Virus record (IMG/VR): IMGVR_UViG_3300025647_000034
Location: 1 to 62,767 of that record
Strand: one strand, 5' to 3'
DNA: 62,767 nt
Origin: a virus
Lineage: Duplodnaviria; Caudoviricetes
In this document: positions 675 to 47,576 of the stretch, one piece after another
Layout: each line of letters starts with the position of its first letter
Position numbering within the stretch: the stretch's first letter is position 1
Made by a program: the position numbers and the translations under genes
The notes under the pieces: model-generated
Told to the model about the DNA's origin: nothing
What the model saw: only the letters and a program-made list of their open reading frames with translations
Databases searched by the model: none

Positions 675-682
675 TATATTTG
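675..682 (+). promoter_or_regulatory. Bacteroidota sigma70 -7 element TATATTTG
   Basis: Matches TAnnTTTG, upstream of the giant gene (likely ATG 707). Confidence 0.7.
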
Positions 683-706
683 CAGAAGTCTCAAGGACTT
701 CTAGCA

Positions 707-11573: not shown

Positions 11574-13430
11574 TTACTGCACCTCGCAGGCGCCACCAGC
11601 GCACGCTGCTTCGCCCATAAGGTTGGTGTTGTCCTGGCCCTCCCTTACGTCACGCAAATCAATGTCGTGAAGCGTAGTCATCATCTGGTCGTACACCTCT
11701 TTGGTGGTTGACTCAAATGGTGTTTGAACATAGGTGCCAAGGTCCTTCGGCAAAAACGAAAGGCCGTTGTAATAATCCTTATTGTTCCATAGCCACCCTC
11801 CTACTTCTTCCCATTCACTATCATCAATAGTGACTGTAGCAGAAATATTGTGAGTATTATCTCCTGTCTTGTGGCCGGGCTTGATCCAATCAATAGAGAA
11901 CTTCTTGATGCGCTCCAAGAACTGCAAAGCTGTTTCTTCATTACGCAACACCGAACCTTCTGGAGCACACTGAGGAATTGAAATCACGGCCTGCTCTGTT
12001 GGCTTGAAGAAGTCATCCTCTAGAATCTCAGGGGCATACTCCGACAAGTACTTGTACAATGGCTCTTCTTTACCAACACGAACACGACGGATATAGTATT
12101 GGTCATGCCAAGCATGGATACCGCTTGAGGTTCCGAGCACGATTGATGATGTACCGCTTGGCTTCACGCAAGTGATACGAGCTGCGTCATTGATGTTGAT
12201 ATCGCTAGACACCTGCTTGTTAACAGCCTTAGCCACGTCAACTGCCTCCTCCAAGTTCAGACCATTGACAGCATTAGATGCGATGCCGGTCATTCCAATG
12301 CCCAACAATGCATCTTCTTCCGTTGTACGCTGCCAAACTGGGCGCAAGTAGTGAAAGTCAGTATAAGACGCTTGGAGCGTTCCAATTACAGCTGCAGCAC
12401 CCACACGTTGGTTAAGGTCGAGTTGGTCCTCTACGTCGCTTGCATTGACCTCTACGAGGTTGCAAAACTGGAAAGGCTTGAGCCCAATCTCACAACATGG
12501 ATTTGTACCCCAATCTTTGTTGTGAGTAAAGTAGAACCCTGGCTCTCCGCTGTTGCTTAGCTCAACCTTCTTCCACAGATCCATGAAGTACTCGTGGCTG
12601 ATCTTGTCTCGCTCCAACACAACGCTGTTGTTTGCACGTCCACGCTGTGGGTTTAGCTCCCACCAATTGCCAAACTTACAAGTCAGCATCTCGTCGTCGT
12701 TCTTGTCAAACAGGCTAATCATTGCACTGCGACGGATACCACCAGCCAACACAGAGTCAGCGATATGACACATGATGTCGTGGCATTCTAAAGGGCTAAG
12801 GCTGGTTCCTTCTTTCTTGTTCTCAAGGATGCCTTTGATTTTACCCAATGCCACACGCAATGGTCCAGGACCAGGAGCCACGCCACCACTGGTTTTCAAT
12901 GGTTCGCCCTGTGCACGGATAGATCGAAAATCGAATACAGGCTCAGCACTAGACAATCCGAAGTAAGCCTTCATCAATGCCTTTACGGCATCGGCCCAAC
13001 CCATCACGTCATCGCTGATCAAGAACTTGCGCTGCTTAGTTGGCTTGGAGATGCGTGGCAAACGATCAACGTGGTGACGCTGAACAGAGTACCCAACACC
13101 ACAGCCAGACAATAACAAGAAGAATGCCTCAGAGAACGCACGATAGTCGTCAATGGGCAAGTAAGAACAGTTGAACAAACGAGCGTTGTTCACCTCGATG
13201 GCAGTGCCACCAAACTGCAATGAACGCATTGATGGAAGAATCTTCTTGTCGTACACCAACTTATATGCGTCCTCGATCTGGTCCTTCATGTGAGGGAACT
13301 TGCGGATGTGCATGTTCTTGTTGCGTGTGACGATCTCCTCCCAGGTCTCACGTCGTCCGATTAAATTGTTGTAGCGTGCGTACTTAGAGTACACAATGAT
13401 GTCTGATAATATTTTTTGTGAGATATTCAT
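11574..13430 (-). CDS. nrdJ: Class II (adenosylcobalamin-dependent) ribonucleotide reductase
   Basis: RRETW, LPSMR, FNCSY, RRSAMI, TNPCCEI, VKPSGT motifs and C-terminal CAGGAC. Confidence 0.9.
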   Translation of the reverse strand: MNISQKILSDIIVYSKYARYNNLIGRRETWEEIVTRNKNMHIRKFPHMKDQIEDAYKLVYDKKILPSMRSLQFGGTAIEVNNARLFNCSYLPIDDYRAFSEAFFLLLSGCGVGYSVQRHHVDRLPRISKPTKQRKFLISDDVMGWADAVKALMKAYFGLSSAEPVFDFRSIRAQGEPLKTSGGVAPGPGPLRVALGKIKGILENKKEGTSLSPLECHDIMCHIADSVLAGGIRRSAMISLFDKNDDEMLTCKFGNWWELNPQRGRANNSVVLERDKISHEYFMDLWKKVELSNSGEPGFYFTHNKDWGTNPCCEIGLKPFQFCNLVEVNASDVEDQLDLNQRVGAAAVIGTLQASYTDFHYLRPVWQRTTEEDALLGIGMTGIASNAVNGLNLEEAVDVAKAVNKQVSSDININDAARITCVKPSGTSSIVLGTSSGIHAWHDQYYIRRVRVGKEEPLYKYLSEYAPEILEDDFFKPTEQAVISIPQCAPEGSVLRNEETALQFLERIKKFSIDWIKPGHKTGDNTHNISATVTIDDSEWEEVGGWLWNNKDYYNGLSFLPKDLGTYVQTPFESTTKEVYDQMMTTLHDIDLRDVREGQDNTNLMGEAACAGGACEVQ

Positions 13431-23158: not shown

Positions 23159-23319
23159 ACCAACTCCTCCCCGATTCCAATTAACTCAGCGATAAAGAAC
23201 GCAGCGGCCATAGCCTCTAGTCCCATTCCGTTAATGAACACAGCCACACAGCCCAACAGGCGGATGAGGCTCTTGCACACGCTCAAGATGAGGTGCATCA
23301 GTGCATCAGGGTGCATCAT
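23155..23319 (-). CDS. Small membrane protein (54 aa)
   Basis: MMHPDALMHLILSVCKSLIRLLGCVAVFING...; ATGA coupling at both ends. Confidence 0.6.
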   Translation of the reverse strand: MMHPDALMHLILSVCKSLIRLLGCVAVFINGMGLEAMAAAFFIAELIGIGEELV

Positions 23320-23981
23320 ATAGCCACCTCCTGTTTGTTGTATGCGTCGTAGACGACACGCTGTCGTAACTCTAGGGCCTCGTTCACTGCGTCTGTCATG
23401 GTTGGATATTCTTGCATGATAGAAAGTTCAACAGAGGATCCTAGAACGCGTCCACGGAGGAATATGGTCTCGTCCTCCAACATGTCTAGATTGGTGACGA
23501 TGATGCTATCCTTCTCGAATAGTGAGTCGAGAGAGAACTTTGATACCGGCACCACGACGGGTGTCGATGCTTGGATGAAGTATCCGTTGCTAGGGTTAAA
23601 CTCTTGGGTCTCCATGTTGTACATGGCCTCGCCCTTGCTGATGATGGTTCGGTGAAATGTTAATACATTGCTCATTTTGTTGATGGTTAGGTCTGTTTCT
23701 TTTGAGAAGATCTTGTTGTACACGACATTCTCGTACTTGTAGTTCTTGGGTAGTGCTTTCCAGTTCTCGACAGCCTCGACTGCGTGAATCACGGTTGAGT
23801 GATCACGGCCAAAGAACTTGCCGATCGACTTCAGGGTGTGGCCCTGCTGTCGTAGGTAATACATGAGTGACTGACGAACAATCACATGGTCTCTTAGTCT
23901 GCGTCCGCTGTTGATAAAGAACTCGATGTTCATACCCATGTGGTTGCGGACAGCCTCTCTTACTTTTTGTTCAATTTCCAT
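23316..23981 (-). CDS. DnaA C-terminal-type HTH protein fused to a degenerate paralog of 24624-24986
   Basis: LKSIGKFFGRDHSTVIHAV signature; C-half from MSNVL (23675) aligns with the 24624 ORF. Confidence 0.75.
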   Translation of the reverse strand: MEIEQKVREAVRNHMGMNIEFFINSGRRLRDHVIVRQSLMYYLRQQGHTLKSIGKFFGRDHSTVIHAVEAVENWKALPKNYKYENVVYNKIFSKETDLTINKMSNVLTFHRTIISKGEAMYNMETQEFNPSNGYFIQASTPVVVPVSKFSLDSLFEKDSIIVTNLDMLEDETIFLRGRVLGSSVELSIMQEYPTMTDAVNEALELRQRVVYDAYNKQEVAI

Positions 23982-24390: not shown

Positions 24391-24580
24391 AATGCTGAAA
24401 TGCTGTTTCAATCTCCCTTTTTTACTTTTTATTTCTTTTATTCTTTCTATGTTTTAATTTTTCTAGAAATGGGAAATAAAACAGCATTTCTACATTTTAG
24501 TAAGTAAGTTATTGAAAGTTAGTTAATTACACGATGCTGTTTTGAATGCTGTACGATGCTGTTTTAGACGAAACAGCACT
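24391..24580. repeat. Origin-like element A: AAACAGCA repeats around an AT-rich, strand-biased tract
   Basis: Several AAACAGCA/TGCTGTTT copies; degenerate inverted copy at 30445-30643. Confidence 0.65.
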
Positions 24581-24623
24581 GACCAACACAAGATTACTTT
24601 AGTAGCCTGACAATAGCGTGACA

Positions 24624-24986
24624 TTAGAGGTCTATCGATCGATTTTGTGCCAAATCCCAAACAGCATTTTGGTTGTTGCTCAGACCATAGGCAAGGGCCT
24701 CTTCTAGGGTCTCAAAATGTAGACTGATGTCAAGGTACCACGACTCGGTCTCTTGGTCAAACCAACACCCAAGGTAGGTCTCTCCGTCAGATAATATGTC
24801 TGCATTGAATAGGGTGTATAGTTTGACTTGGTTGACTAGGTCTTGGCCATTGCGGACCTCCATCTCGTGTCCCTCCATGGATGCCATGTAGCCGTGGCTC
24901 GGTGCCTCCTCTCCGGTGGTGATGTTGTAACTGAAGCCGGTATTGTTGGCCTCAGCGTTGCGGGATAGTGCTAGTAGATTGCTCAT
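24624..24986 (-). CDS. Early protein, possibly SAM-lyase-like fold; same domain occurs in the giant protein
   Basis: GFSYN...GY...YLGCW....YLDIS...A...G..NQNAVWDL; start MSNLLA. Confidence 0.6.
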   Translation of the reverse strand: MSNLLALSRNAEANNTGFSYNITTGEEAPSHGYMASMEGHEMEVRNGQDLVNQVKLYTLFNADILSDGETYLGCWFDQETESWYLDISLHFETLEEALAYGLSNNQNAVWDLAQNRSIDL

Positions 24987-25237
24987 TTTACAATTAGGTT
25001 GTTTACTTTGGTTAATGTTTGCAAGTTGATGAGTCGGTAGTTCTTTTTGCTCATGTCCCACACGCACAGGTACCCGAGTTCTTGTGGGTCGTATGCCCGT
25101 GGCTTTGCGTTTTCTTTCAGGCCTTTTACTACGCCTGAGCGTCCATGGAGACGGCGGGTTGTGCCGTCTTTCTTAGTGAATTCGCAAGAGAAGAAGCGTC
25201 CACTCTTGATAATTTGGATTGATTGTTTCTTGTTCAT
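24983..25237 (-). CDS. SH3/WYL_2-like beta-barrel protein
   Basis: FTKKDGTTR...VWDM...YRLIN pattern. Confidence 0.65.
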   Translation of the reverse strand: MNKKQSIQIIKSGRFFSCEFTKKDGTTRRLHGRSGVVKGLKENAKPRAYDPQELGYLCVWDMSKKNYRLINLQTLTKVNNLIVK

Positions 25238-25239
25238 AG

Positions 25240-25443
25240 TTAAAATTCTTCGTCGGTTGATAATAGGCTGATGCTAGTCAGCGTGGTGTTGGTCTCCTCG
25301 TCGTAAAGGTCCTCGAATACATGGCCGATGCTGTGCACATCAGAGTTCAGGTCGTAGCGGAAGTTTACACTTAGGTCGTCAAGGCTCACGCCATGCTCGA
25401 TGGCGAGTTCTTGGATTTGGCGAATCAGTTTAGATGCGTTCAT
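25240..25443 (-). CDS. Early hypothetical protein, acidic (MNASKLI...)
   Basis: ORF in the operon. Confidence 0.6.
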   Translation of the reverse strand: MNASKLIRQIQELAIEHGVSLDDLSVNFRYDLNSDVHSIGHVFEDLYDEETNTTLTSISLLSTDEEF

Positions 25444-25702
25444 AGATGTTGTTGTAGTAGTTGATTGAGTTCTGGATGGTGCCAGTGGTTCCCTCTTGGA
25501 GCTCGTCTCGGCTTGGAACCTTGTTGCCGTAGGCGTCATAGAATGCTTTCTTTGGTAGGAAACATGCACCTGACTTGAGCATACTCATGGCAAGTCGGCC
25601 CGTTGAGCCTTCCATTTGCCACGCTGTGCCGTTGTCGATGAGTCGTTGGATCGGGGCGTACCCCATGTCTTGTTGGATTGTTCGAATGTCTTTGATTTTC
25701 AT
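25430..25702 (-). CDS. Early hypothetical protein
   Basis: ORF in the operon. Confidence 0.7.
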   Translation of the reverse strand: MKIKDIRTIQQDMGYAPIQRLIDNGTAWQMEGSTGRLAMSMLKSGACFLPKKAFYDAYGNKVPSRDELQEGTTGTIQNSINYYNNIYERI

Positions 25703-25863
25703 GGTAGTTTAATTATTTCGTAGTACTCATAACCCTCTTCAGGGTCGCTGTTTAAATGTTCGCACAGCAAATCTGCATCTCCTTTGGTCATCTCGGTTGA
25801 GATGAACTCGGGCCATCCGGTCATATCGAAACCGATGATGGCCCACTTGTTCAGTTCTCTCAT
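25699..25863 (-). CDS. Early hypothetical protein (54 aa, MRELNKW...)
   Basis: ATGA coupling at both ends. Confidence 0.6.
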   Translation of the reverse strand: MRELNKWAIIGFDMTGWPEFISTEMTKGDADLLCEHLNSDPEEGYEYYEIIKLP

Positions 25864-26183
25864 ATCTCGTTCCATTTAGGGTCTTCTAGGTCGACCATGA
25901 CTTGCATGGAATCTTCTAGGTCCTCGGTCCAAATGGTCACCCATACTAGGTCGCCAATTATTGTGGCGTTGTACCCGTTTTCTTCTAGGTATGCATGGAC
26001 GGCCTCTGCCTTGCTCATGGCGACGAACTCTCTGTATTCCTCGCCATCGTTGAACTCTTGGATAGACTTGTAGTCGGTGCCAAAGTGCTCGTTGTGCTCT
26101 TGAATCATTAACTCCACATCTTGGAAGGTAAGGTTCACGACGAGAGCATCTGCGTCGTCTGTTTCGTTGTAATAAAATTTCAT
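25860..26183 (-). CDS. Early hypothetical protein, highly acidic
   Basis: About 26 D/E vs 5 K/R in 107 aa. Confidence 0.7.
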   Translation of the reverse strand: MKFYYNETDDADALVVNLTFQDVELMIQEHNEHFGTDYKSIQEFNDGEEYREFVAMSKAEAVHAYLEENGYNATIIGDLVWVTIWTEDLEDSMQVMVDLEDPKWNEI

Positions 26184-26185
26184 GG

Positions 26186-26551
26186 TTATATTTCGTTTTC
26201 TAGTTCATGGTTTGCTGTGTATAAGTGCCCGTCTACCCATACTGAGATGACATTCCCTTGGTTGTCTCGAACAACACGGGTCTGCTCAGTTGTTACATGG
26301 TGGTTGTACTCGTGTTGGTGGACCTCTCTCTCACTATCATCGAAGCACTCTGCAACAAGGTCGTCGATGTGAAACTTGTACTGGGCCAAGTTGTCGGCCA
26401 AGGCCTTGTCGCCATGGTCGAGAGCGGCCTCTATGTCTTGCTCTAGCCACTCGCTTAGGTCCTCCAAGGTGTTGACGATTTGGCTGTCTGTACTTCTCGT
26501 GAATGAGAATAGGTTGAGCGCAAGGCTCACGATGAAGATTGTCTTTTTCAT
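26186..26551 (-). CDS. Early protein with signal peptide
   Basis: N-terminus MKKTIFIVSLALNLFSF. Confidence 0.7.
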   Translation of the reverse strand: MKKTIFIVSLALNLFSFTRSTDSQIVNTLEDLSEWLEQDIEAALDHGDKALADNLAQYKFHIDDLVAECFDDSEREVHQHEYNHHVTTEQTRVVRDNQGNVISVWVDGHLYTANHELENEI

Positions 26552-26572
26552 AATAGTTTGATTTAGGGTTGG

Positions 26573-26821
26573 TTATAGGTACTTGGTCCTGATTTCTTTT
26601 TTGATTACATTCATTCGGTCCTTGGCGATTTGCTCTTCGGTCCAAGAGTCGTCGTCGTCGTTCCGATAGGCGGTTACTAGGGCGTCTAGCCATTCGCCAA
26701 TGGCGTACGCCTCGACCAACTCAAACCTAGCGTCTAGGTACATGGTCACTAGTTCTTCGAATGTGACTCGCTTCGAGAGGTCCTCGACCTCCATGGCGAT
26801 TACTTCAGGCTTGAGTTTCAT
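26573..26821 (-). CDS. Early hypothetical protein
   Basis: ORF in the operon. Confidence 0.65.
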   Translation of the reverse strand: MKLKPEVIAMEVEDLSKRVTFEELVTMYLDARFELVEAYAIGEWLDALVTAYRNDDDDSWTEEQIAKDRMNVIKKEIRTKYL

Positions 26822-27168
26822 TCTCCGTCCTCCTCTCGATTTTGTACGCTGTCCAAAGAGTCAAAGTACTCGGTGATTAAGTCCCATGCGGCATCTGCCT
26901 TGCTTAGGTCGTTGTTCAGTTGCAAGACATCTAGCGTCGCCAGAATCATTGCGGATTCGATTTTTGTTAGCATAGTTTGATTTTTTGTTGATGGCTCGAT
27001 GCCATAGGTGTTGTTGTTGTCGAATGAATGGCCTTCGTCAATCAAAGATTCGCTCAAGTCGTCATAGATTTGATAGACCTCATGATTTGACTGGTGGAGT
27101 GATTTCGCTTCAGATGCGTCAACTATGTGCCATGTGAAGTTGTCTGGGGTTGTGATTGTTTTTTTCAT
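26818..27168 (-). CDS. Early hypothetical protein
   Basis: Directly downstream of mini-tRNA 1. Confidence 0.65.
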   Translation of the reverse strand: MKKTITTPDNFTWHIVDASEAKSLHQSNHEVYQIYDDLSESLIDEGHSFDNNNTYGIEPSTKNQTMLTKIESAMILATLDVLQLNNDLSKADAAWDLITEYFDSLDSVQNREEDGE

Positions 27169-27186: not shown

Positions 27187-27235
27187 TGGCTCCCCACCTA
27201 GGTCATGAGCCTTCGCCTTCTATAGGTGGTGGGGA
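27187..27235 (-). ncRNA. Mini-tRNA-like element 1 (49 nt)
   Basis: TCCCCAC-CA.CCT.ATAGA.AGG.C-GAAGG.CTCATGA.CCTAG-GTGGGGA-GCCA. Confidence 0.75.
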
Positions 27236-27241
27236 TGGGTG

Positions 27242-27508
27242 CTACCCGTGGAAATCTAGGTCGGGGTAGACATGGATGGTGTCGGGGTCACCGAACTTGG
27301 TCTGGAACTTGTAGAACAAGTCGCCAAGGTCGTTGCCTTGCTTCTCATGCCACTTGCAGAATTCGTCGAAGCGGTAGCGTGGCACGACCAAGTAGCCCAT
27401 GTCGTAGTTGTCGTATTGCAACTCGGGGTCGGGGCTGATGTACTGCGTGTGAAGGTTGCTGTCTCTGTAGAACAAGCGGTGGTCCCTTCTGAAACTTACG
27501 CCTTCCAT
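27242..27508 (-). CDS. Early hypothetical protein (MEGVSFRRD...)
   Basis: TAATG-coupled start. Confidence 0.65.
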   Translation of the reverse strand: MEGVSFRRDHRLFYRDSNLHTQYISPDPELQYDNYDMGYLVVPRYRFDEFCKWHEKQGNDLGDLFYKFQTKFGDPDTIHVYPDLDFHG

Positions 27509-27600
27509 TATCCGAAGATGATTAAGGCGAACAGACATGCCGCAAGAGCGGGTAACAAGGCTAAAAAGCCAACTAGGGTTTCTTTTAAATCTTGATTCAT
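27508..27600 (-). CDS. Early 30-aa membrane peptide
   Basis: MNQDLKETLVGFLALLPALAACLFALIIFG; coupled to the next gene. Confidence 0.55.
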   Translation of the reverse strand: MNQDLKETLVGFLALLPALAACLFALIIFG

Positions 27601-27602
27601 GG

Positions 27603-27995
27603 TTAGAAAATTTGAATGGGTTCGAAAGATGTTGATACGAATGTGTTGTCTACTAGGTCTGCGACTTGGAATTGGCGTTCATCAAGTTTGTTGCACAAGG
27701 CCTTGGCTTGATGATGGTGAAGGCCTTTCTTCACAAGGCCAATCTTTTCGCCTCTGAAGAACTGCGCTACACCCCATCTTGGGGGTAGTTCAGTCACTAC
27801 CCAATCGCTGTCGTAGTTCAGTTCCTCGACAGCAAAATCTGTCACCTCTCGAATATCGAATCGGTACACATTGCTGCTTACCTTGTCGATGCGAATCAGT
27901 GGCTTGAAGCCTTGAAGAGCGACGATTAAGTTCATGTGCTCGTCGATGAATTCTTGTGGGTCGTAGCCCTCGTAATAAGTTACTAGTTTGTTCAT
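27603..27995 (-). CDS. Early hypothetical protein
   Basis: ORF in the operon. Confidence 0.65.
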   Translation of the reverse strand: MNKLVTYYEGYDPQEFIDEHMNLIVALQGFKPLIRIDKVSSNVYRFDIREVTDFAVEELNYDSDWVVTELPPRWGVAQFFRGEKIGLVKKGLHHHQAKALCNKLDERQFQVADLVDNTFVSTSFEPIQIF

Positions 27996-28000
27996 GGTTA

Positions 28001-28255
28001 TTAATAGTTAGTCCAATCGTCTGATTCGTCGTTGTTAAGGTCGGTAGCAATTAAGATGTTCTCGATGTGAGACCAAGCGTAGTCGGCCACATCAGTGGGT
28101 CGATAAAGGTCGAAGCCATTGTCGATGGCCCATGCCTTAAACTGACGGGCGTCCTCCTCAGCGAATGCCAAGCGGCGCTTCAGTTCGTTGATTTGCTTGA
28201 TGGCGTCACTCAAGGTGGCGGCCAATTCTTGTTCGGTCATTTTGTGATTTTTCAT
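28001..28255 (-). CDS. Early hypothetical protein
   Basis: Directly downstream of mini-tRNA 2. Confidence 0.65.
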   Translation of the reverse strand: MKNHKMTEQELAATLSDAIKQINELKRRLAFAEEDARQFKAWAIDNGFDLYRPTDVADYAWSHIENILIATDLNNDESDDWTNY

Positions 28256-28272
28256 CTTAGTTTGATTAGGTT

Positions 28273-28321
28273 TGGCTCCCTGAGTGAGTCATGAACTCTC
28301 GCCGTCTTATGGGCTCAGGGA
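28273..28321 (-). ncRNA. Mini-tRNA-like element 2 (49 nt)
   Basis: TCCCTGA-GCCCATAAGACGGC-GAGAG.TTCATGA.CTCAC-TCAGGGA-GCCA. Confidence 0.75.
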
Positions 28322-28330
28322 AGGTTGTGG

Positions 28331-28687
28331 TTAGTACCACTCGGTGTAGTAACACATGTCGTCGGCGTAGGCCGCCTCGATGATGTCGGCGTTTGACATG
28401 GTGGCGGGGTAGCCGCATGACTCTCTAAGGTACTTGGCCGCAAGGTCGGCGTCGTCGGTGTAACGGGCGCCATCTGCGATGCAAAAGCCCTCATTGAAAA
28501 CCTTGCCCGTCCAAGAGCAGACACGATGGTCGTCTGCGTCTTCTGAGTGGGTGAACAAAAGTGTCGTAGACCTGATGAACTCGACAGCCTTGTCTCTAGT
28601 CTCAAATGTGTCAAGCAGTTCGCCTGAAAGGGCATAGTATGCCGACCATGTCAGGTTGAAATTTGGGGTTAAGATTACTTCTCTCAT
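28331..28687 (-). CDS. Early hypothetical protein
   Basis: ORF in the operon. Confidence 0.65.
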   Translation of the reverse strand: MREVILTPNFNLTWSAYYALSGELLDTFETRDKAVEFIRSTTLLFTHSEDADDHRVCSWTGKVFNEGFCIADGARYTDDADLAAKYLRESCGYPATMSNADIIEAAYADDMCYYTEWY

Positions 28688-28693
28688 GGTGGT

Positions 28694-28948
28694 TTAGTAT
28701 GTGATAATGTGGTCGGTTGAGATTCCAATTGACTTGCAAGTATCGAAGCCTTGCTCAGTTAGGCAGAACATGTAGCCCATGTCCATTCCCTCGTAGGCGT
28801 CGTAGACTAGGCCCTTCTTGATGAGCGACCCTAGGACGCCCTTCTCTTGGTTGCCGCAGACCTCTTGAAAGCCTGAGTAGTTGTCTTCGGTTTGTTCCCA
28901 CGCTACCTTTTCCAAGGTGGCAGTTTCTAGTTGTGTTAGATTTGTCAT
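28694..28948 (-). CDS. Early protein, possible winged-helix
   Basis: GVLGSLIKKGLV...LTEQG pattern. Confidence 0.65.
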   Translation of the reverse strand: MTNLTQLETATLEKVAWEQTEDNYSGFQEVCGNQEKGVLGSLIKKGLVYDAYEGMDMGYMFCLTEQGFDTCKSIGISTDHIITY

Positions 28949-28965
28949 AATAGTTTAGATTGGGT

Positions 28966-29014
28966 TGGCTCCCCGCCTAGGTCTCGAACCTACGCTGTCT
29001 CTCAGTGACGGGGA
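28966..29014 (-). ncRNA. Mini-tRNA-like element 3 (49 nt)
   Basis: TCCCCGT-CA.CTG.AGAGA.CAG.C-GTAGG.TTCGAGA.CCTAG-GCGGGGA-GCCA. Confidence 0.8.
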
Positions 29015-29021
29015 TGGGTGG

Positions 29022-29249
29022 TTAGTCTCGGTTGATGCTGTAAAGCATGTGCCAAAAGTCATCCAAGAATCCATCAACATCGTTGAATCGTTGTGCGATT
29101 GCTTGGTCGCTGTCGTCAGACCAATCGTCGTAGGTCTCTCTCATCCTGTCTGAGATTTTGTACTTGGCGTGGAGCCTACGCATCTTGTCGCAGACAGCAG
29201 CGATGTCATTCTCCATGGATAGGAGTTGTTTGTCGGTGAACTTTTTCAT
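29022..29249 (-). CDS. Early hypothetical protein (MKKFTDKQLL...)
   Basis: Lies between the hammerhead and mini-tRNA 3. Confidence 0.65.
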   Translation of the reverse strand: MKKFTDKQLLSMENDIAAVCDKMRRLHAKYKISDRMRETYDDWSDDSDQAIAQRFNDVDGFLDDFWHMLYSINRD

Positions 29250-29262
29250 GGTGGTATTGTTT

Positions 29263-29312
29263 GTCAAAGACGCCCGAGGGCGTTTCGGCTATTGAAGCCT
29301 CATCAGTTTGAC
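29263..29312 (-). ncRNA. Type I hammerhead ribozyme
   Basis: GTCAAA-CTGATGA-GGCT.TCAAT.AGCC-GAA-ACGCC.CTCG.GGCGT-C-TTTGAC: full catalytic core, three perfect stems, GUC site (cut between 29269 and 29268). Confidence 0.93.
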
Positions 29313-29492
29313 TTAGTTTTTAAAACTTGACAAATAGTGGTCTACATCGTCTTGGTTCAATCCAAAAAAGACCTCAATTTCGCCATTTGGTTTTTTGATT
29401 TTAACAATGTGTCTTTTGAAATTCCAACAGGCATTTGGCATTTCTACATAGTTCTCAATTACTTCAATCGTGTTGTTTTGTTCGTTGTTCAT
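29313..29492 (-). CDS. First early gene, hypothetical (59 aa, MNNEQNNTIE...)
   Basis: Open frame read manually; its TAA abuts the hammerhead. Confidence 0.65.
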   Translation of the reverse strand: MNNEQNNTIEVIENYVEMPNACWNFKRHIVKIKKPNGEIEVFFGLNQDDVDHYLSSFKN

Positions 29493-29508
29493 AATGGTTT
29501 AGTTTAAG

Positions 29509-29559
29509 TGGCTCCACAAGGCCCGACTCGAACGGGCGGCAAACCTATTGGCTTGGGAA
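29509..29559 (-). ncRNA. Mini-tRNA-like element 4 (~51 nt)
   Basis: TTCCCAA-GC.CAA.TAGGT.TTG.C-C-GCCCG.TTCGAGT.CGGGC-C-TTGTGGA-GCCA; canonical T-arm, imperfect acceptor stem. Confidence 0.7.
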
Positions 29560-29637
29560 GTATGTAGTGCTCACCTAGTGGCGTTAAGGTGTGGGTGGAG
29601 GGAGCCATCCCTCGGCACTATGCAATAGTATCAGTAA

Positions 29638-29667
29638 GTCAAAGAGCGGTTGTTGATGTAATTCAAC
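29638..29667 (-). promoter_or_regulatory. boxB-like hairpin plus boxA-like antitermination element
   Basis: GTTGA.ATTACA.TCAAC at the predicted +1, followed by CGCTCTTTGAC. Confidence 0.55.
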
Positions 29668-29671
29668 GATA

Positions 29672-29703
29672 CAAAGTTGGGGAGAGGTTTTGACTCCACC
29701 AAA
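29672..29703 (-). promoter_or_regulatory. Early promoter (TTTG-N20-CAACTTTG)
   Basis: Bacteroidota -33/-7 architecture with one mismatch; predicted TSS ~29667. Confidence 0.6.
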
Positions 29704-29724
29704 TTTTTCTTGAAGAAATGTGGA

Positions 29725-29743
29725 ATTTAGAATGATTCTAAAT
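29725..29743. promoter_or_regulatory. Fur-box-like palindrome ATTTAGAATGATTCTAAAT
   Basis: Perfect 9-1-9 inverted repeat; resembles the Fur box described for Flavobacteriales (from memory). Confidence 0.6.
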
Positions 29744-29796
29744 AATACTCATTGAATATCAATCAGTTAGCCCTAAAAAAAGTTTTATGCAAAATG

Positions 29797-30070
29797 AGGG
29801 CCTAAGGGACTAAGCACATGTGGGGCTAGGTTTTTGGGGCGAAGTTGAGGGGCTCGAGGGGGTAAACCCCTCCTTCTAGGTGGTAGGAAGTGGGGTAAGG
29901 TGGGGCTAGGCGGGGCCGAGTGGACCTGCTCACTGCTGCCTATTTAGATTGATTCTAAATAGTTTACTGCTAGACGATGGGCCTAGACGGGGCAAAATTG
30001 CGTGGCCATCCTGTAGCAGTTTGTGTAGTTTGGCGGGGCTAGGTGGTGTGGCCTAGGTGACCTAGGTAAG
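29797..30070. repeat. G-rich tract with GGGGCTAGG/CCTAGG repeats
   Basis: GGGGCTAGG at 29822, 29902 and 30035; strong G skew; non-coding. Confidence 0.6.
29942..29960. promoter_or_regulatory. Second Fur-box-like palindrome ATTTAGATTGATTCTAAAT
   Basis: One mismatch to the 29725 copy. Confidence 0.55.
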
Positions 30071-30202: not shown

Positions 30203-30210
30203 TACATTTG
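30203..30210 (+). promoter_or_regulatory. -7 element TACATTTG
   Basis: 4 nt before ATG 30215. Confidence 0.65.
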
Positions 30211-30214
30211 CGAC

Positions 30215-30364
30215 ATGGTTATTTCTATAGAATCCCGACTCCGCTACGGCCTACTGCTAGGCTTCCAGTTGTACAATCCTGACGACGAGGATCCGTACTA
30301 TGAGATTGTAATCGACCTTTTGGTGGTCCGTTTGAGCTTTGCTTGGATGCCAAAGATGGATTAA
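30215..30364 (+). CDS. Hypothetical protein (49 aa, MVISIESRLRYGLLLGFQLY...)
   Basis: Open frame directly after the promoter. Confidence 0.6.
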   Translation: MVISIESRLRYGLLLGFQLYNPDDEDPYYEIVIDLLVVRLSFAWMPKMD

Positions 30365-30444
30365 AAAATGCTAAAACATTTTGGACAAACTCCATCGCAA
30401 TAATGCGATAATGACATTTCTGTGACATAACATTATGTTAAGTA

Positions 30445-30643
30445 GTGCTGTTTCACGGTTTCACGGACAAAACAGCACTATTGTACATTTAAAACAGCAT
30501 CGTGTAACTTATTGATTTTCATAGAAATACTTTTTTCAATGCTCTAATGCTGTTTTTTTTACAGTTTTCAGAAAATTTAAAAAGTATAAAAGAAGAATAA
30601 AATAAAAAAGAAAAAGAGAGCTTCAAAACAGCATTTCTACATT
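30445..30643. repeat. Origin-like element B (inverted relative to A)
   Basis: AAAACAGCATCGTGTAA at 30491-30507 is the reverse complement of 24527-24543; same order of repeats and A-tract. Confidence 0.65.
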
Positions 30644-36400: not shown

Positions 36401-37930
36401 ATGGCAATTTTAAAGCATGTGCATCTTGGCGGAGAAGGCCAGGAGAAGTTAATCAAAGGCATCAACACATTGGCAGATGCCGTGAAGAGCACGCTGGGTC
36501 CAAAGGGCCGTACGGTGCTGATCGAGTCTGAGAACCACACCCATGGCGTGACCATCACAAAAGATGGCGTCACGGTGGCCAAGTCCATTACGCTGTTCGA
36601 CCCTGTCGAGAACATGGCGGTGAACGTGGCACGTGAGGCGTCAGAGAAGACGGCCACACAGGCTGGTGATGGAACCAGTACTAGTATAGTACTGGCTCAA
36701 GCAATAGTCAATGAAGCCAAGAAGCACGCCAAGGACGGCACCGACATGGGAACGCTGGCCAAGGAGATTCAGGTCATTGCAGCGAAGGTCGTTGACTACA
36801 TCAAGGATACGGCCATCCCAGTAACGCCTGAGACGTTGGTTGATGTGGCTACTATTAGTGCCAACGGTGACGCTGAGCTTGGTGCACTGATCGCTGACGC
36901 CTACTCAAAGGTGTCATACGTGACGGTGGCTGACTCAAAGACCCACGAGACCTATGCCGACATCATTGAGGGCATCAAGGTGGACAGACCTGTTGGGTCA
37001 AGATTCTTTATTACAGACCAAAAGAAGAATGAATGCGTGCTTCAGGACCCCTACATCTTGGTCTCTGACCAGAAGATCGAGAACCTATCGTCTTTGGAGC
37101 ACGTGCTGGCGCCAATTGTACAGGGTGGCAAGAGTTTGTTGATCATCTCTGAGATGGGGATGAACGCTTTGAACACTCTGAACGTGAACGCCATGAAGGG
37201 CACGATCAAGGTGTGCCAGGTGTTGCCTCCTGACTTCGGCTACAGACGTAAGGAGCTGATGGAGGACATCGCTGCTATGGTCGGTGCACGACTGGTGAGC
37301 GAGGACACGGGCGATGAGCTGAGCCTGGTTGGTATGGACTGGTTGGGTAAGGCCGACAAAGTCATCAGCGGACAGGAGCAGACCATCATTGTAGGTGGAC
37401 ACGGTGAGGAGAGTGCGATTAAGGTGAAAATTGAATCCCTATCGGGATCCAATGACACGTTCGACAAGCAGCGTGTGGCCAATATGACGGGTGGTATCGG
37501 CATTATTTACGTCGGTGCTGACTCTGAGATCGAGCAGAAGGAGAAGAAGGACCGTGTTGACGACGCTGTGTGTGCTGTTAGAGCCGCCATGGACGAGGGG
37601 ATCCTTGCAGGGGGAGGAGTCGCGTTACATAACGCTACTTCAGTCGTTGTCAAGTCGACCTCAACAGCCTCAAAAATCATGTCCGAGGCGTTAAAAGCGC
37701 CAATGAGGCAGATTTTGAAGAACGCTGGCGACGATTGGTCCTATGTAGAGGGTCAAATGAGCGAGCCAGGGCTCGGTTTCGACGTCAGAGCGCAACGATA
37801 TGGCGATATGATAAAGATGGGTGTCACTGACCCTGCGAAAGTGACTAGAACGGCCCTACAAAACGCTGTGAGCGTAGCTACGACCATTATGGGGACAAAC
37901 GTTATTGTATCTAATGTAAGAGATTTATGA
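36401..37930 (+). CDS. groEL: Phage chaperonin GroEL (Cpn60)
   Basis: TLGPKGR, ITKDGVTVAK, AGDGTST, GILAGGG, DPAKVTRTALQNA. Confidence 0.95.
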   Translation: MAILKHVHLGGEGQEKLIKGINTLADAVKSTLGPKGRTVLIESENHTHGVTITKDGVTVAKSITLFDPVENMAVNVAREASEKTATQAGDGTSTSIVLAQAIVNEAKKHAKDGTDMGTLAKEIQVIAAKVVDYIKDTAIPVTPETLVDVATISANGDAELGALIADAYSKVSYVTVADSKTHETYADIIEGIKVDRPVGSRFFITDQKKNECVLQDPYILVSDQKIENLSSLEHVLAPIVQGGKSLLIISEMGMNALNTLNVNAMKGTIKVCQVLPPDFGYRRKELMEDIAAMVGARLVSEDTGDELSLVGMDWLGKADKVISGQEQTIIVGGHGEESAIKVKIESLSGSNDTFDKQRVANMTGGIGIIYVGADSEIEQKEKKDRVDDAVCAVRAAMDEGILAGGGVALHNATSVVVKSTSTASKIMSEALKAPMRQILKNAGDDWSYVEGQMSEPGLGFDVRAQRYGDMIKMGVTDPAKVTRTALQNAVSVATTIMGTNVIVSNVRDL

Positions 37931-43698: not shown

Positions 43699-44296
43699 GA
43701 TCTCCTCATACGCTGCCGTCACTCCCACAGGGACTGACCTTCTCATTGGAACCGATACCAGTGCATCTGACGCTACCAAGAACTTTACGGTATCATCGTT
43801 GGCAACTTTCATTGGTGGCCAAATGACTGCCACTCAAGTATTGAACGCTTCTAGCACAGTTGCTCAAAACCCAAGTGGACTAGACACCGCTCTTCAGGTT
43901 TCTTTTGGCGCAGCGCAAGGCACAGCGTCTGATCCTGTCATGATTGACGCAGCTGGAACTGTAACCTTCAATGAGACCGGGTTGTACTTGGTGAATGGCA
44001 TGGGCAACATTCATCGCACAGGTCCAAGCGGAATCGCTTTGTTGCTGTTCCGTGGCTTGGTGAATGGATCACAGGCTGGAATCATCAAAGGATTTGAGTT
44101 GGATACTGCAGATGTAATGATGCCGTATGAGATTACTATTCCTTTCTCTGTTTCTGTTGCTGGAACTACGTTTGCTTTCCAAATCATGCGTGACAGCTCT
44201 GGTGCTGATGATGGAGGATTGATCCCTCAAGTCACCGCCGGTCCTTGGGATGATATCCCATCTGCTAATATGCAGATTTGGAAGATAGGAGGATAA
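43691..44296 (+). CDS. Putative virion fibre/decoration protein
   Basis: MTKISSY..DLLIGTD..TKNFTV anchor plus beta-sandwich-like C-terminus. Confidence 0.6.
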   Translation: MTKISSYAAVTPTGTDLLIGTDTSASDATKNFTVSSLATFIGGQMTATQVLNASSTVAQNPSGLDTALQVSFGAAQGTASDPVMIDAAGTVTFNETGLYLVNGMGNIHRTGPSGIALLLFRGLVNGSQAGIIKGFELDTADVMMPYEITIPFSVSVAGTTFAFQIMRDSSGADDGGLIPQVTAGPWDDIPSANMQIWKIGG

Positions 44297-44297
44297 T

Positions 44298-44516
44298 ATG
44301 GACATCCGCAAAATTTCAATCGGATCTGACTACAAAAACGCTATGAACTACGTAAAGGGCCAATCGGTCCTTTCGGGTTCGTATACGATCAACCACATTC
44401 GTAGGACTACAGACGGAGAGTTCCAGGTGTGGATTGAAAAAGATAAAGAGGTTTTCTTATGGAAATCGTTCACGGTCAACATGCCGTGCTCAGTTGAATA
44501 CAATATCGAATTTTAA
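44298..44516 (+). CDS. Hypothetical protein
   Basis: ORF in the operon. Confidence 0.65.
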   Translation: MDIRKISIGSDYKNAMNYVKGQSVLSGSYTINHIRRTTDGEFQVWIEKDKEVFLWKSFTVNMPCSVEYNIEF

Positions 44517-44519
44517 TAT

Positions 44520-45095
44520 ATGCAATCGCTCTACTATTTTGTGGTAGAGCCTGTTGATGGGAAAAGGTACACTAATACCAGAAGCTACGGAGACAAAGAG
44601 TTCATTATTAGCACCTCGCAAGAGGACCACACCGTTACGAACAGGCTCGCAGAGGTCGTCAATGTCCCCTTTGGATATGGCGGCCCTATCGCTATTGGTG
44701 ATCACGTCATTGTTCACCATAATGTTTTTCGCAAGATGTTTGATATGAGGGGGAAGGAAATCGACTCCTACTCATTCATCCGTGAAAATCTATACTACCT
44801 TGACGACATGCAGCTGTACGCCTACAAACATCCAGGCGAGGACTGGGAGCCTGTAGGCCGTTACTGCTTCGTAGAGCCAATAAAAGAAGAGAAAGATACC
44901 ATCATAGCCAAGAAGGGTGCGAACGTCGCTCTATGGGGCTCTATGGTGTATCCTAACGATAGATTGCGTGAGCTTGGCGTCTCACGTGGAGATGTTATAT
45001 CCTTTCAGCCTGACTCTGAGTATGAGTTCAGAATTGACGATAGGATTTTGTATAGAATGTATGACTCAAACATATGTCTCAAACAAGGAAGCTAA
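44520..45095 (+). CDS. Tandem GroES-like protein
   Basis: Two repeats of FVEP...(V/G)...GD.V(I/V) GroES-fold pattern. Confidence 0.6.
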   Translation: MQSLYYFVVEPVDGKRYTNTRSYGDKEFIISTSQEDHTVTNRLAEVVNVPFGYGGPIAIGDHVIVHHNVFRKMFDMRGKEIDSYSFIRENLYYLDDMQLYAYKHPGEDWEPVGRYCFVEPIKEEKDTIIAKKGANVALWGSMVYPNDRLRELGVSRGDVISFQPDSEYEFRIDDRILYRMYDSNICLKQGS

Positions 45096-45361
45096 AGGAA
45101 GAGATCATAACGGCTGGCGAGCACGCTGTCAAGGAGCTAATCAAAGTGGCTAAAGAACCCATCGTAACAGGCGACATTGAGAGCGACCTGTCGGCTGACA
45201 GGCTCAAGAACGCTGCTGCCGCCAAGAGGCTGGCCATCATGGACGCATTTGACATTCTGCGTAGAATAGACGAGGAGCGGAACCTCCTCACGGCAGAAGA
45301 TTCTGTCGTGTCCGAGTCAATCACATCAACCAAGGGCTTTGCGGAAAGACGTAGCAAGTGA
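45074..45361 (+). CDS. Putative terminase small subunit
   Basis: Small helical gene coupled to the large terminase. Confidence 0.5.
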   Translation: MSQTRKLKEEIITAGEHAVKELIKVAKEPIVTGDIESDLSADRLKNAAAAKRLAIMDAFDILRRIDEERNLLTAEDSVVSESITSTKGFAERRSK

Positions 45362-47556: not shown

Positions 47557-47576
47557 CCCTATCTTTGCAGAAAACA

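Follow-up and report, generated by a model that had tools for sequence, protein, structure and literature searches.

Mini-tRNAs and a hammerhead ribozyme as candidate processing signals in the early operon of a putative flavobacterial podophage

Introduction

The early RNA of phage T7 is a host-polymerase transcript that RNase III cuts at repeated structured signals between cistrons. In MALAT1 mascRNA and in engineered tRNA- or ribozyme-flanked RNA arrays, a tRNA-like fold within a longer RNA recruits RNase P and defines the ends. To our knowledge, tRNA-like punctuation has so far been associated with mitochondria and with a few long non-coding RNAs of eukaryotes. The t-elements of plant mitochondria are described as tRNA-like, with a non-canonical fold in which the T arm is conserved (PMC1920247). 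E. coli RNase P RNA is reported to cleave correctly hairpins composed of an acceptor stem and a T-stem-loop, the RCCA sequence pairs with the RNase P RNA, and mRNAs and phage RNAs are also cut (PMC11143913). Hammerhead ribozymes lie between phage genes, where processing of long phage transcripts has been proposed, and a halovirus carries a hammerhead 13 nt upstream of the first ORF in an early transcript (PMC3088659, Perreault et al. 2011). In T4-type phages, promoter-plus-stem-loop units (PeSLs) bound shuffled early cassettes (PMC2839356).

Here, we analyze a 62,767-nt Caudoviricetes sequence (IMG/VR record IMGVR_UViG_3300025647_000034; hereafter, the window), for which rRNA-operon-like expression and processing of the early transcript had been predicted. 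In animal mitochondrial tRNA punctuation and plant t-elements, tRNA-like structures between cistrons are signals for tRNA-processing endonucleases; a similar arrangement is seen here, with a tRNA-like fold between cistrons in 22 of 22 contexts of an element that we call the mini-tRNA, and with no internal promoter or terminator motifs. Unlike the mitochondrial structures, the phage elements appear as uniform 49-nt armless derivatives of a single tRNA (Asn) with an encoded CCA, their cleavage is predicted, and they are found 15-19 nt before start codons, alternating with hammerheads. Our literature search found no published case of tRNA punctuation in a phage. As in T7, a single early transcript would be cut between cistrons by a host RNase, but RNase P with tRNA mimics, together with a ribozyme, would take the place of RNase III and its hairpins. 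MALAT1 mascRNA and the engineered arrays are eukaryotic or synthetic, whereas the window holds a natural phage operon. Like the phage and prophage hammerheads of Perreault et al. (2011), the window hammerhead lies between phage genes; however, its family is of the minimal type I, is placed at the stop codon of the first ORF, shares slots with mini-tRNAs, and falls below the Rfam cut-offs. The elements of the window resemble PeSL cassettes in being repeated, intergenic, and located at the boundaries of shuffled early cassettes, and differ from PeSLs in being tRNA mimics without a promoter or terminator motif.

Results

The TerL relatives of the window (n = 93 records) include phages of Flavobacterium (68), Cellulophaga (15), Tenacibaculum (2), and Maribacter (1), and we propose that the window is a podophage of Flavobacteriia-type hosts. 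Its start codons are without Shine-Dalgarno sequences. The phage also encodes a 3142-aa protein, the function of which is not known. The early operon spans approximately 29.67 to 24.62 kb on the minus strand, and its features are as follows:

29942..29960, no strand: operator-like palindrome, second copy, 1 mismatch
29725..29743, no strand: operator-like palindrome, perfect 19 bp (9-1-9), directly upstream of the -33 element
29672..29703, minus: Bacteroidetes-type promoter TTTG-N20-CAACTTTG (-33 TTTG at 29703-29700; -7 CAACTTTG at 29679-29672)
29652..29667, minus: 5'-proximal hairpin, GUUGA-AUUACA-UCAAC, located at the start of the transcript or close to it
29638..29647, minus: boxA-like motif GCUCUUUGAC (GCTCTTTGAC)
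29566..29619, minus: Y-shaped leader structure (P1 29619-29615/29570-29566; P2 29613-29598; P3 29591-29572)
29509..29558, minus: mini-tRNA 4, leader type; RNase P predicted to cut at 29559/29558
29313..29492, minus: early gene 1, 59 aa, without a Pfam family
29263..29312, minus: minimal type I hammerhead; predicted cleavage after C at 29269
29022..29249, minus: early gene 2, 75 aa
28966..29014, minus: mini-tRNA 3, intergenic type; RNase P predicted to cut at 29015/29014
28331..28948, minus: two early genes, of 84 aa (28948-28694) and 118 aa (28687-28331)
28273..28321, minus: mini-tRNA 2, intergenic type; RNase P predicted to cut at 28322/28321
27242..28255, minus: four early genes, encoding 84 aa, 130 aa, a membrane peptide of 30 aa, and approximately 88-98 aa
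27187..27235, minus: mini-tRNA 1, intergenic type; RNase P predicted to cut at 27236/27235
24624..27168, minus: remaining early genes of the same operon, tightly packed
26544..26572, minus: A/C-rich spacer copy, usually found after a mini-tRNA and here without one; cassette boundary

The order of features in the original prediction, from the promoter to the remaining genes, was recovered in full on the minus strand (29743 to 27187), with the exception of the label "Fur-like" for the site upstream of the promoter. This site is an operator-like palindrome, with two matches in the window versus 0.04 expected, and it is kept in 6/6 aligned leaders. Its agreement with what we take to be the Fur consensus (8 of 19 positions, compared by eye) is no better than expected of an AT-rich palindrome, and the Fur assignment is unsupported. 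The adjacent promoter was named after what we take to be the Bacteroidetes-type consensus. Since the frequency of this pattern in the window is at the level of chance (12 versus 10.2 expected), the promoter call draws its support from conservation: the promoter is invariant in 6/6 aligned leaders. The search with the Bacteroidetes-type pattern returned the leader promoter as the sole minus-strand match within the operon, with no further promoter-like site on the operon strand, and no terminator-like sites were found on that strand. We infer a single early transcript from this arrangement.

The leader is approximately 105 nt long. The 5' hairpin, described as boxB-like in the original prediction, is present in 5/6 aligned leaders, with one relative (L002) being different, and the position of the boxA-like motif that follows it is conserved in 6/6 close leaders. 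The CGTTCTTTGAC motif is also found within the otherwise dissimilar leader of MW202828. The boxA-like 9-mer by itself is not above chance in the window (6 versus 3.1 expected). It agrees by eye with 9 of 11 positions of the E. coli core, a consensus that was taken from PMC13753749. The boxA sequences of E. coli and B. subtilis are UGCUCUUUAACA and AUGAUCUUUGAAA, respectively, and a 5' hairpin precedes boxA there, too (PMC13753749). The placement of GCUCUUUGAC directly after a 5' hairpin is similar to Nus antitermination of the rrn/lambda type. The more distant leaders (L003, L007, and L232, read by eye) are without a boxA-like motif. Nus factors may act at this motif in the window, through binding of NusB/S10. 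The Y-shaped structure further downstream has compensatory changes in all three helices (RNAalifold) and no Rfam match.

The mini-tRNAs are 49-50 nt long and consist of a 7-bp acceptor stem, a T arm with a 7-nt loop, and a discriminator base followed by CCA; a 3-bp hairpin stands for the D and anticodon arms. Mini-tRNA 4 has a 7-bp acceptor stem with one bulge, the 3-bp hairpin, a 5-bp T stem (GCCCG/CGGGC), the loop UUCGAGU, and GCCA. A covariance model of copies 1-3 (R1) recovered copy 4 at E 0.014, with the next best match in the 62.8 kb at E 3.1, and it also recovered copies in L002. A second model (R2) found a held-out copy at E 0.015 and had no matches in 33 other loci. A metagenome scan with the T arm of the leader mini-tRNA returned 10 stretches, nine of which are relatives with 21 strong copies. 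Among 20 distinct copies, in an alignment fitted to the model, 91.9% of the cells are paired, versus 65.5% for shuffled and 31-47% for slid partners; 11 of the 15 pairs change on both sides, and the acceptor helix is 99.3% paired and the T helix 79%. The outer two T-stem pairs of the intergenic subtype are mostly non-canonical. The CCA is present in 20/20 distinct copies (GCCA 16, ACCA 2, UCCA 1, and CCCA 1), and a related element in MW202828 is without it. The mini-tRNAs are a conserved, covarying RNA family.

True tRNAs were considered and rejected, as there is no cloverleaf and the D and anticodon arms are replaced by the 3-bp hairpin. ARAGORN called zero tRNA genes in the window, the mini-tRNAs included, and no Rfam tRNA match to them was found even at E up to 10. 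A scan with the combined T-arm and acceptor pattern returned 18 stretches, of which nine lie in tRNA-Asn genes and one in a tRNA-Gln gene, as called by ARAGORN; R2 aligns those tRNA genes end to end, with 27-40 bits. Judging by this match of the acceptor and T arms to genuine phage tRNA-Asn genes, the mini-tRNAs evidently either stem from tRNA-Asn or mimic it. Each of the 22 distinct contexts lies between genes and has the orientation of the genes, in the order stop codon, short spacer, element, and ATG. CCA and ATG are 15-19 nt apart in 20 of the 22; two L002 copies have spacings of 2 and 5 nt. The flanks are C/A-rich and unstructured.

The mini-tRNAs have the features of a minimal RNase P substrate as given in PMC11143913, i.e., 7 + 5 stacked layers and a T loop, with RCCA in 18/20 distinct copies and, as in the minimal substrate, an unpaired 5' leader. 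RNase P cleavage at +1 is what we infer from these features. It should be noted that the T-loop position matching A58 varies between copies, that there is no D loop to support the T-loop fold, and that for leader mini-tRNA 4 the tRNA-like fold is not the minimum-energy one, an alternative hairpin fold being available.

The hammerhead is placed exactly at the stop codon of the small first ORF and has a 6-bp stem I, the core CUGAUGA, a 4-bp stem II, GAA, and a 5-bp stem III. The core is described as C3 U4 G5 A6 N7 G8 A9, G12 A13 A14, A15.1-U16.1, and H17 (PMC3088659); every core position is present in the window and, except N7, is invariant in 17 aligned relatives. It is the sole type I match in the window, and any match was found in 2 of 300 random windows. 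Among 16 distinct sequences, which had been pre-selected by a pairing filter, all cells pair and 11/15 pairs change on both sides. No tertiary contact is evident, and no hammerhead match was obtained at the Rfam gathering thresholds (best score, RAGATH-1 hammerhead, 20.8 versus 56.3 bits; Hammerhead_3, 14.4 versus 48.5). The hammerhead is a conserved, covarying RNA structure with a complete minimal type I motif, and it presumably cleaves itself in vivo.

The ribozyme does sit in the same kind of intergenic slot as the mini-tRNAs, as had been predicted: both follow a stop codon and precede the start codon of the next gene. Whether relatives swap the two at equivalent junctions was also raised by the original prediction, and such swaps are seen at two slots. 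Directly before gene 1, the window lineage has a mini-tRNA, and more distant relatives (L007, L011, and the cultured Flavobacterium phage elemoA) have a type III hammerhead. At the junction that follows gene 1, a hammerhead is found in the window and in L002, L149, L150, and L151, and its place is taken by a mini-tRNA in two close relatives, L143 and L146. Because two slots hold either kind of device among relatives, the comparison suggests that mini-tRNAs and hammerheads are interchangeable. Gene content between the elements varies among close relatives. Homology blocks of the window with L143, L145, L146, L149, and L150 begin or end at elements or spacers (29499-29471, 29252, 27153, and 26572), with L143, L145, and L150 becoming homologous again at 26572-26574. 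By these comparisons, the elements also mark recombination boundaries of shuffled early gene cassettes.

Discussion

The mini-tRNAs and the hammerhead are most likely cutting signals that would turn one long early RNA into separate messages. One RNA would be made from a single host-type promoter guarded by the operator palindrome, with a leader that bears the 5' hairpin, the boxA-like motif, and the Y-shaped structure, and its cistron groups would be parted by five processing devices, four of which are the putatively tRNA-Asn-derived mini-tRNAs. Host RNase P would see these as pre-tRNA-like minihelices and cut on their 5' side, and the fifth device, the minimal type I hammerhead, would cut itself at the stop codon of gene 1. 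As a result, the leader would be removed and separate mRNAs freed, with new 5' ends that are either base-paired and tRNA-like (RNase P) or carry a 5'-OH (hammerhead), and the stability and translation of the cassettes would be uncoupled. We consider this model as a whole (one RNA, RNase P at the mini-tRNAs, and a self-cutting hammerhead) to be just on the likely side. A point against the processing model is that the message upstream of an RNase P cut would have a 3' end without protection.

The mini-tRNAs could instead be uncut structural modules in cis, i.e., exonuclease barriers, blocks to Rho loading, or ribosome platforms for the AUG approximately 17 nt downstream. The CCA-to-ATG spacing in 20/22 contexts, the C/A-rich unstructured flanks, and a host group without Shine-Dalgarno sequences are in line with such modules; however, two L002 copies are spaced only 2 and 5 nt, an uncut module has no need for an invariant CCA, a G73-like base, and a 12-layer acceptor/T geometry, and self-cleaving ribozymes fill the same slots in relatives, so that we regard this reading as unlikely. 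Rather unlikely, and a little more so, is that the elements act mainly on DNA as repeated recombination boundaries that shuffle cassettes, similar to PeSLs of T4-type phages, with the RNA fold being secondary. Homology blocks stop and start at elements or spacers, gene content between the elements differs among close relatives, and PeSLs provide a precedent (PMC2839356, PMC4122927). Nevertheless, recombination requires sequence identity, yet the stems covary, and it is therefore the pairing, and not the sequence, that is kept; every copy is co-oriented with the genes, and a role in DNA is compatible with processing and need not replace it.

Excision on both sides would make free 49-nt CCA-ended RNAs the product, serving as competitors for RNase P or as decoys for host enzymes or for candidate defence toxins with the acceptor ends of tRNAs as targets. 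The elements mimic closely the acceptor stem and T arm of tRNA-Asn, encode CCA in 20/20 copies, and occur four per transcript, expressed early; in addition, plant t-elements are reported to be released as stable RNAs (PMC1920247). This reading is quite improbable, as 3' cleavage is without support, the MW202828 copy has no CCA, and the equivalence with hammerheads points to the cut and not to the product. A broader possibility, to which we assign a low probability, similar to that of the DNA-level role, is that excised tRNA-Asn acceptor/T-arm mimics with CCA flood the cell early and act in trans, or that tRNA-like 5' caps recruit the Shine-Dalgarno-less Bacteroidota ribosomes; the trans targets may be host enzymes of defence or stress by which the acceptor ends of tRNAs are attacked or modified, or RNase P and the CCA-adding enzyme may be diverted from host tRNAs. 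If true, trans mimics or tRNA-like caps would each represent a way of using tRNA mimicry that is new for a DNA phage. Finally, it is very improbable that the elements have no function at the RNA level and are tRNA-Asn pseudogenes in decay or signals in the DNA (promoters of a phage polymerase or origins). Their likeness to tRNA-Asn and the 3142-aa protein of unknown function would fit, whereas compensatory changes keep the pairing in 20 distinct copies, the same shortened architecture is found in all copies, all of them are intergenic and co-oriented, and there is no host-type promoter motif in or beside the elements.

Should cleavage be confirmed, the processing model would make this the first operon of a phage or bacterium with dedicated tRNA-like punctuation, and a signal for host RNase P and a self-cleaving ribozyme would be used interchangeably at the same slots. 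The exchange of devices would be a natural experiment on why phages process early RNA, and it would provide a functional context for many unexplained hammerheads of aquatic phages. The boxA-like leader would add a Bacteroidota phage to the settings in which Nus-type antitermination occurs. The 49-nt RNase P handle and the 50-nt hammerhead are compact natural parts that may serve multigene expression in Bacteroidota, a group with few genetic tools. The location of the elements at cassette boundaries suggests a route by which early "ORFan" genes become shuffled in this phage group.

Organisation of the early operon and its leader

The feature order in the original prediction, from a palindrome through leader, mini-tRNAs and hammerhead to tightly packed genes, proved correct on the minus strand when read against the sequence, the ORFs and a covariance model. 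The mini-tRNAs are 49-50-nt elements with a 7-bp acceptor stem, a 3-bp hairpin, a T arm and a terminal NCCA. They are numbered from the promoter, beginning with mini-tRNA 4 (the leader copy), and copies 1-3 form the intergenic subtype.

Features of the early operon (window coordinates)
29743-29725, minus-strand reading: operator-like palindrome
29703-29700, minus: promoter-like motif, TTTG
29679-29672, minus: promoter-like motif, CAACTTTG
29667-29652, minus: 5' hairpin
29647-29638, minus: boxA-like motif, GCTCTTTGAC
29619-29566, minus: structured leader stretch, Y-shaped
29558-29509, minus: mini-tRNA 4
29492-29313, minus: first gene after the leader
29312-29263, minus: hammerhead
29249-29022, minus: second gene
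29014-28966, minus: mini-tRNA 3, then two genes
28321-28273, minus: mini-tRNA 2, then four genes
27235-27187, minus: mini-tRNA 1
from mini-tRNA 1 to about 24624, minus: tightly packed remaining genes

On the operon strand, the sole match to a relaxed pattern of the Bacteroidetes promoter consensus is the site before the leader, and no terminator-like site was found on that strand inside the operon. The promoter pattern as such occurs at chance frequency in the window; the site is supported by its invariance in six of six aligned leaders. Transcription of the early operon as a single unit can therefore be called plausible. Imperfect inverted repeats of about 200 bp flank the early module (24391-24596 and 30428-30612); each contains many AAACAGCA/TGCTGTTT motifs and AT tracts, is able to form a long hairpin, and may represent a terminator or middle-promoter region of the two flanking operons.

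The operator-like palindrome (two matches in the window versus 0.04 expected) is conserved in the aligned leaders. It had been described as a Fur-like box, a description that is not supported: judged by eye, it agrees with the Fur consensus at only 8 of 19 positions. We read the palindrome as a putative operator for a dimeric regulator. Between its two occurrences lies a stretch (29745-29940) that is C-rich on the minus strand and contains repeated CCTAGCCCC-like units. A plus-strand TACATTTG motif, noted by eye, directly precedes the ATG at 30215 (30203-30217); should it serve as a -7 promoter element, the first message on the plus strand would be almost leaderless.

The boxA-like motif resembles boxA of E. 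coli (UGCUCUUUAACA) and B. subtilis (AUGAUCUUUGAAA), and it follows a 5' hairpin, as boxA does in the rrn leaders of B. subtilis (PMC13753749). It is kept in all six close leaders and reappears as CGTTCTTTGAC in the otherwise dissimilar leader of MW202828.1. Since the 9-mer by itself is not unusually frequent in the window (6 occurrences versus 3.1 expected) and the motif was not seen in three distant leaders (those of the compared loci L003 and L007, and of Flavobacterium phage elemoA), the possible involvement of Nus in the early operon stays a reasonable guess. The Y-shaped structure 3' of the motif has compensatory changes in all three helices and no Rfam match. In L002, a close IMG/VR relative, an insertion of about 85 nt (about 8075-8160, minus strand), GC-rich and probably structured, separates the 5' end of the leader from the boxA-like motif.

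Mini-tRNAs as a conserved family of RNA structures

Copies 1-3 belong to a 56-nt repeat family (64-79% identity) that folds into an outer stem of 7-8 bp, a small hairpin and a second hairpin; 88.9% of the cells in their alignment are paired, and 7 of 15 pairs have changed on both sides. We used covariance models in place of loose descriptors, because the latter were unspecific (18 matches versus 11.9 in random sequence). The model of copies 1-3 recovered copy 4 (19.3 bits, E 0.014), and nothing else in the window scored above 9.8 bits. Four copies are present in the same operon of L002, the GroEL of which is 83% identical; one of these, held out, was recovered by a second model (E 0.015), which had no match beyond the window and L002 in 513 kb from 35 sources. 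When the 21-base T arm of the leader mini-tRNA was used to scan metagenomes, 10 stretches were returned, 9 of them relatives with 21 further strong copies; the match L142 was discarded as a chance occurrence within a bacterial gene.

MAFFT misaligned the leader copy, and a model-based alignment was used. Among 25 copies (20 distinct), aligned by fitting to the model, which favours pairing, 91.9% of the cells are paired, versus 65.5% in shuffled sequences and 31-47% with slid partners, and both sides have changed in 11 of 15 pairs. The variety of pair types and the controls with slid partners indicate that the signal is real. The acceptor-like helix has 99.3% of its cells paired and the small hairpin 96.7%. 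The T-like helix is lower, at 79.0%, and in the intergenic subtype its two outer pairs are for the most part non-canonical. All 20 distinct copies end in NCCA (GCCA in 16, ACCA in two, UCCA and CCCA in one each). The genomic setting is equally uniform: in 22 of 22 distinct contexts the element is co-oriented with the genes and occupies the interval from one stop codon to the next start codon, where a short C/A-rich spacer usually comes after the stop. The distance from CCA to ATG is 15-19 nt in 20 of these contexts, and 2 and 5 nt in two L002 copies. The leader mini-tRNA (29509-29558) has an alternative fold, in which its 5' acceptor strand is taken up by a 6-bp hairpin; L002 conserves the two folds, so that a structural switch is possible.

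Resemblance to tRNA-Asn

ARAGORN called no tRNA in the window and none in the close relatives (39 related loci were run), and there was no Rfam match in the window at gathering scores. A search of 11 kb with E values up to 10 gave a chance microRNA match only, and blastn with the leader mini-tRNA gave only a chance match to tRNA-Gly. A bacterial Y RNA, the tRNA mimic of the YrlA type described in PMC4201824, was considered and set aside, having no supporting Rfam match. Viral contigs were scanned with a pattern of the T arm plus the 3' acceptor strand. Nine of the 18 stretches found lie in tRNA-Asn(GTT) genes called by ARAGORN and one in a tRNA-Gln gene; of the others, one is truncated at the end of its locus, six are chance-like and one is in the contig L249. 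The mini-tRNA model aligns end-to-end with the true tRNA-Asn genes (27-40 bits), with the D and anticodon arms as an insertion, and direct alignment shows that 5' UCCC, the T arm and 3' GGAGCCA are common to both. At the sequence level, the model and the direct alignments identify the elements as minihelices made of the acceptor stem and T arm of tRNA-Asn, with a 3-bp hairpin taking the place of about 29 nt. We have very little doubt that the mini-tRNAs are selected RNA structures that mimic tRNA-Asn.

In L249, an unrelated 29-kb viral contig, 48 nt of non-tRNA sequence are enclosed by an acceptor stem, T arm and GCCA that resemble those of tRNA-Asn (12448-12541, minus strand), with an ATG 20 nt downstream and no ARAGORN call. 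Such tRNA-Asn-like elements may be more widespread.

Hammerhead ribozymes

A helix-aware scan, adopted because a loose helix-free pattern performed at chance level (5 matches versus 5.2 expected), detected a single hammerhead of type I in the window; it has a full core, three stems (6, 4 and 5-6 bp) and a fold z of -3.0. Any hammerhead match, with stems of only 3 bp required, was found in 2 of 300 randomised windows. The type I hammerhead is also present in L002, L003 and L007, and a 14-base anchor scan of viral contigs extended the family to another 16 loci, a number that includes several duplicate contigs. Every cell is paired across the 16 distinct sequences, which is partly built in by a pairing filter used to pre-select the rows, and both-side changes, which are not built in, occur in 11 of 15 pairs. 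No curated Rfam model reached its cut-off (the best, RAGATH-1 hammerhead, scored 20.8 bits versus 56.3), nothing on RAGATH-1 was found in PMC5737381, and no flank complementary to loop II, hence no pseudoknot, was apparent.

In the window, L003, L043/L045, L050, L080 and L150, the ribozyme sits immediately next to the stop codon that ends a small first ORF and lies 4-23 nt before the next ATG. This ORF is located 3' of a promoter-like motif, or of the leader mini-tRNA (window and L150). Among cultured phages, blastn found the family in Flavobacterium elemo phages (14 records) and Pelagibacter phages (7 records), the fold being confirmed for elemoA. Because some members precede Shine-Dalgarno sequences, the family extends beyond phages of Bacteroidota. 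Hammerheads beside phage genes, and the proposal that they process long phage transcripts, have been published (PMC3088659), and the alignments of Perreault et al. might already include members of this family. In elemoA (NC_055852.1), unannotated hammerheads occur in the early leader (type III, about 3503-3560) and inside the operon (type I, about 1711-1765); gp68, which is annotated on the other strand, overlaps the latter and is probably spurious.

Phage and host

At 62.8 kb, the window represents a complete or almost complete phage record, with a gene divergence point at about 29.7-30.7 kb and PHROG matches to terminase, portal, virion proteins, GroEL/GroES, primase/helicase, ribonucleotide reductase and recombination proteins. 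The large terminase has relatives in 93 GenBank phage records (Flavobacterium 68, Cellulophaga 15, uncultured 6, Tenacibaculum 2, Maribacter 1, Caudoviricetes 1), the top match being MW202828.1 (68.8% identity). Start codons in the early region are preceded by A/C-rich stretches, without Shine-Dalgarno sequences. From these terminase relatives and start codons, we infer that the host is a member of Flavobacteriia. The 5-kb early region had no blastn match among GenBank phages, a search with a 221-aa protein yielded no related loci, and an early-protein alignment as query yielded the L002 contig only.

A 3142-aa ORF (680-10108) has no Pfam family and matches only PHROGs of unknown function; its MW202828 counterpart has 3859 aa. 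Other phage genes code for a protein carrying a DnaA C-terminal helix-turn-helix domain and for a phage-borne GroEL and GroES (23316-23981, 36401-37930 and 44520-45095).

Exchange of elements and cassette boundaries

The original prediction, which took both kinds of element for cleavage devices, asked whether relatives swap them at equivalent junctions, and they do so at two places. The slot before gene 1 holds the leader mini-tRNA in the window, L002, L143, L145, L146 and L148-L151, and, in the more distant L007, L011 and elemoA, a type III hammerhead that is followed after 15-28 nt by the first ATG. At the junction after gene 1, L143 and L146 have a mini-tRNA where the window, L002, L149, L150 and L151 have a hammerhead; this case is weaker, because the genes there are not all homologous. 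No mini-tRNAs were found in L003, L007 and elemoA, and MW202828 has one mini-tRNA-like element, in which CCA is absent. A different repeated intergenic device is present in the early operon of MW202828.1: all 11 exact copies of a 16-bp palindrome (0 expected) lie there, at 43745-49889, most of them about 20 nt upstream of start codons. The copies show no variation, which suggests a protein-binding site.

Homology between the window and its close relatives falls into blocks, which end at 29499-29471 (just 3' of the leader mini-tRNA), 29252 (just 3' of the hammerhead), 27600, 27153 (just 3' of mini-tRNA 1) and 26572 (a spacer copy without a mini-tRNA), and gene content between the elements varies from contig to contig. 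Thus, the elements bound shuffled gene cassettes, in which they resemble the PeSLs of T4-type phages (promoter-plus-stem-loop units). We regard the boundary role as a second property rather than the explanation, because the covariation is indicative of selection on pairing and not only on sequence.

Proposed processing of the early transcript

The most economical reading is that host RNase P would cut at the 5' side of each mini-tRNA. PMC11143913 describes correct cleavage of hairpins composed of an acceptor stem, T stem and T loop by the RNA of the E. coli enzyme, pairing of the 3' RCCA with this RNA, and cleavage of some mRNAs and phage RNAs by RNase P. No RNA-processing enzyme was found with Pfam and PHROGs among the early proteins and nearby ORFs. 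Among the sequencing runs listed by a search with the stretch, none contained it as RNA. That the cut itself is the function is argued by the relatives, where the same slots hold self-cleaving ribozymes. We slightly favour the full model, in which RNase P and the hammerhead would together process the early RNA; our confidence is limited by the non-canonical outer T pairs, a T-loop position that varies among copies, the competing fold of the leader copy and the MW202828 copy that lacks CCA.

In plant mitochondria, mRNA ends are set by tRNA-like t-elements (PMC1920247). Within the open-access literature on tRNA-like elements, RNase P and phage polycistronic RNA, on tRNA punctuation, and on hammerheads of Bacteroidetes phages or pelagiphages, no description of tRNA-like punctuation in a phage was found. 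The kind of mechanism is known; what is new is its use by a phage, together with the armless design derived from tRNA-Asn and the way the elements alternate with hammerheads.
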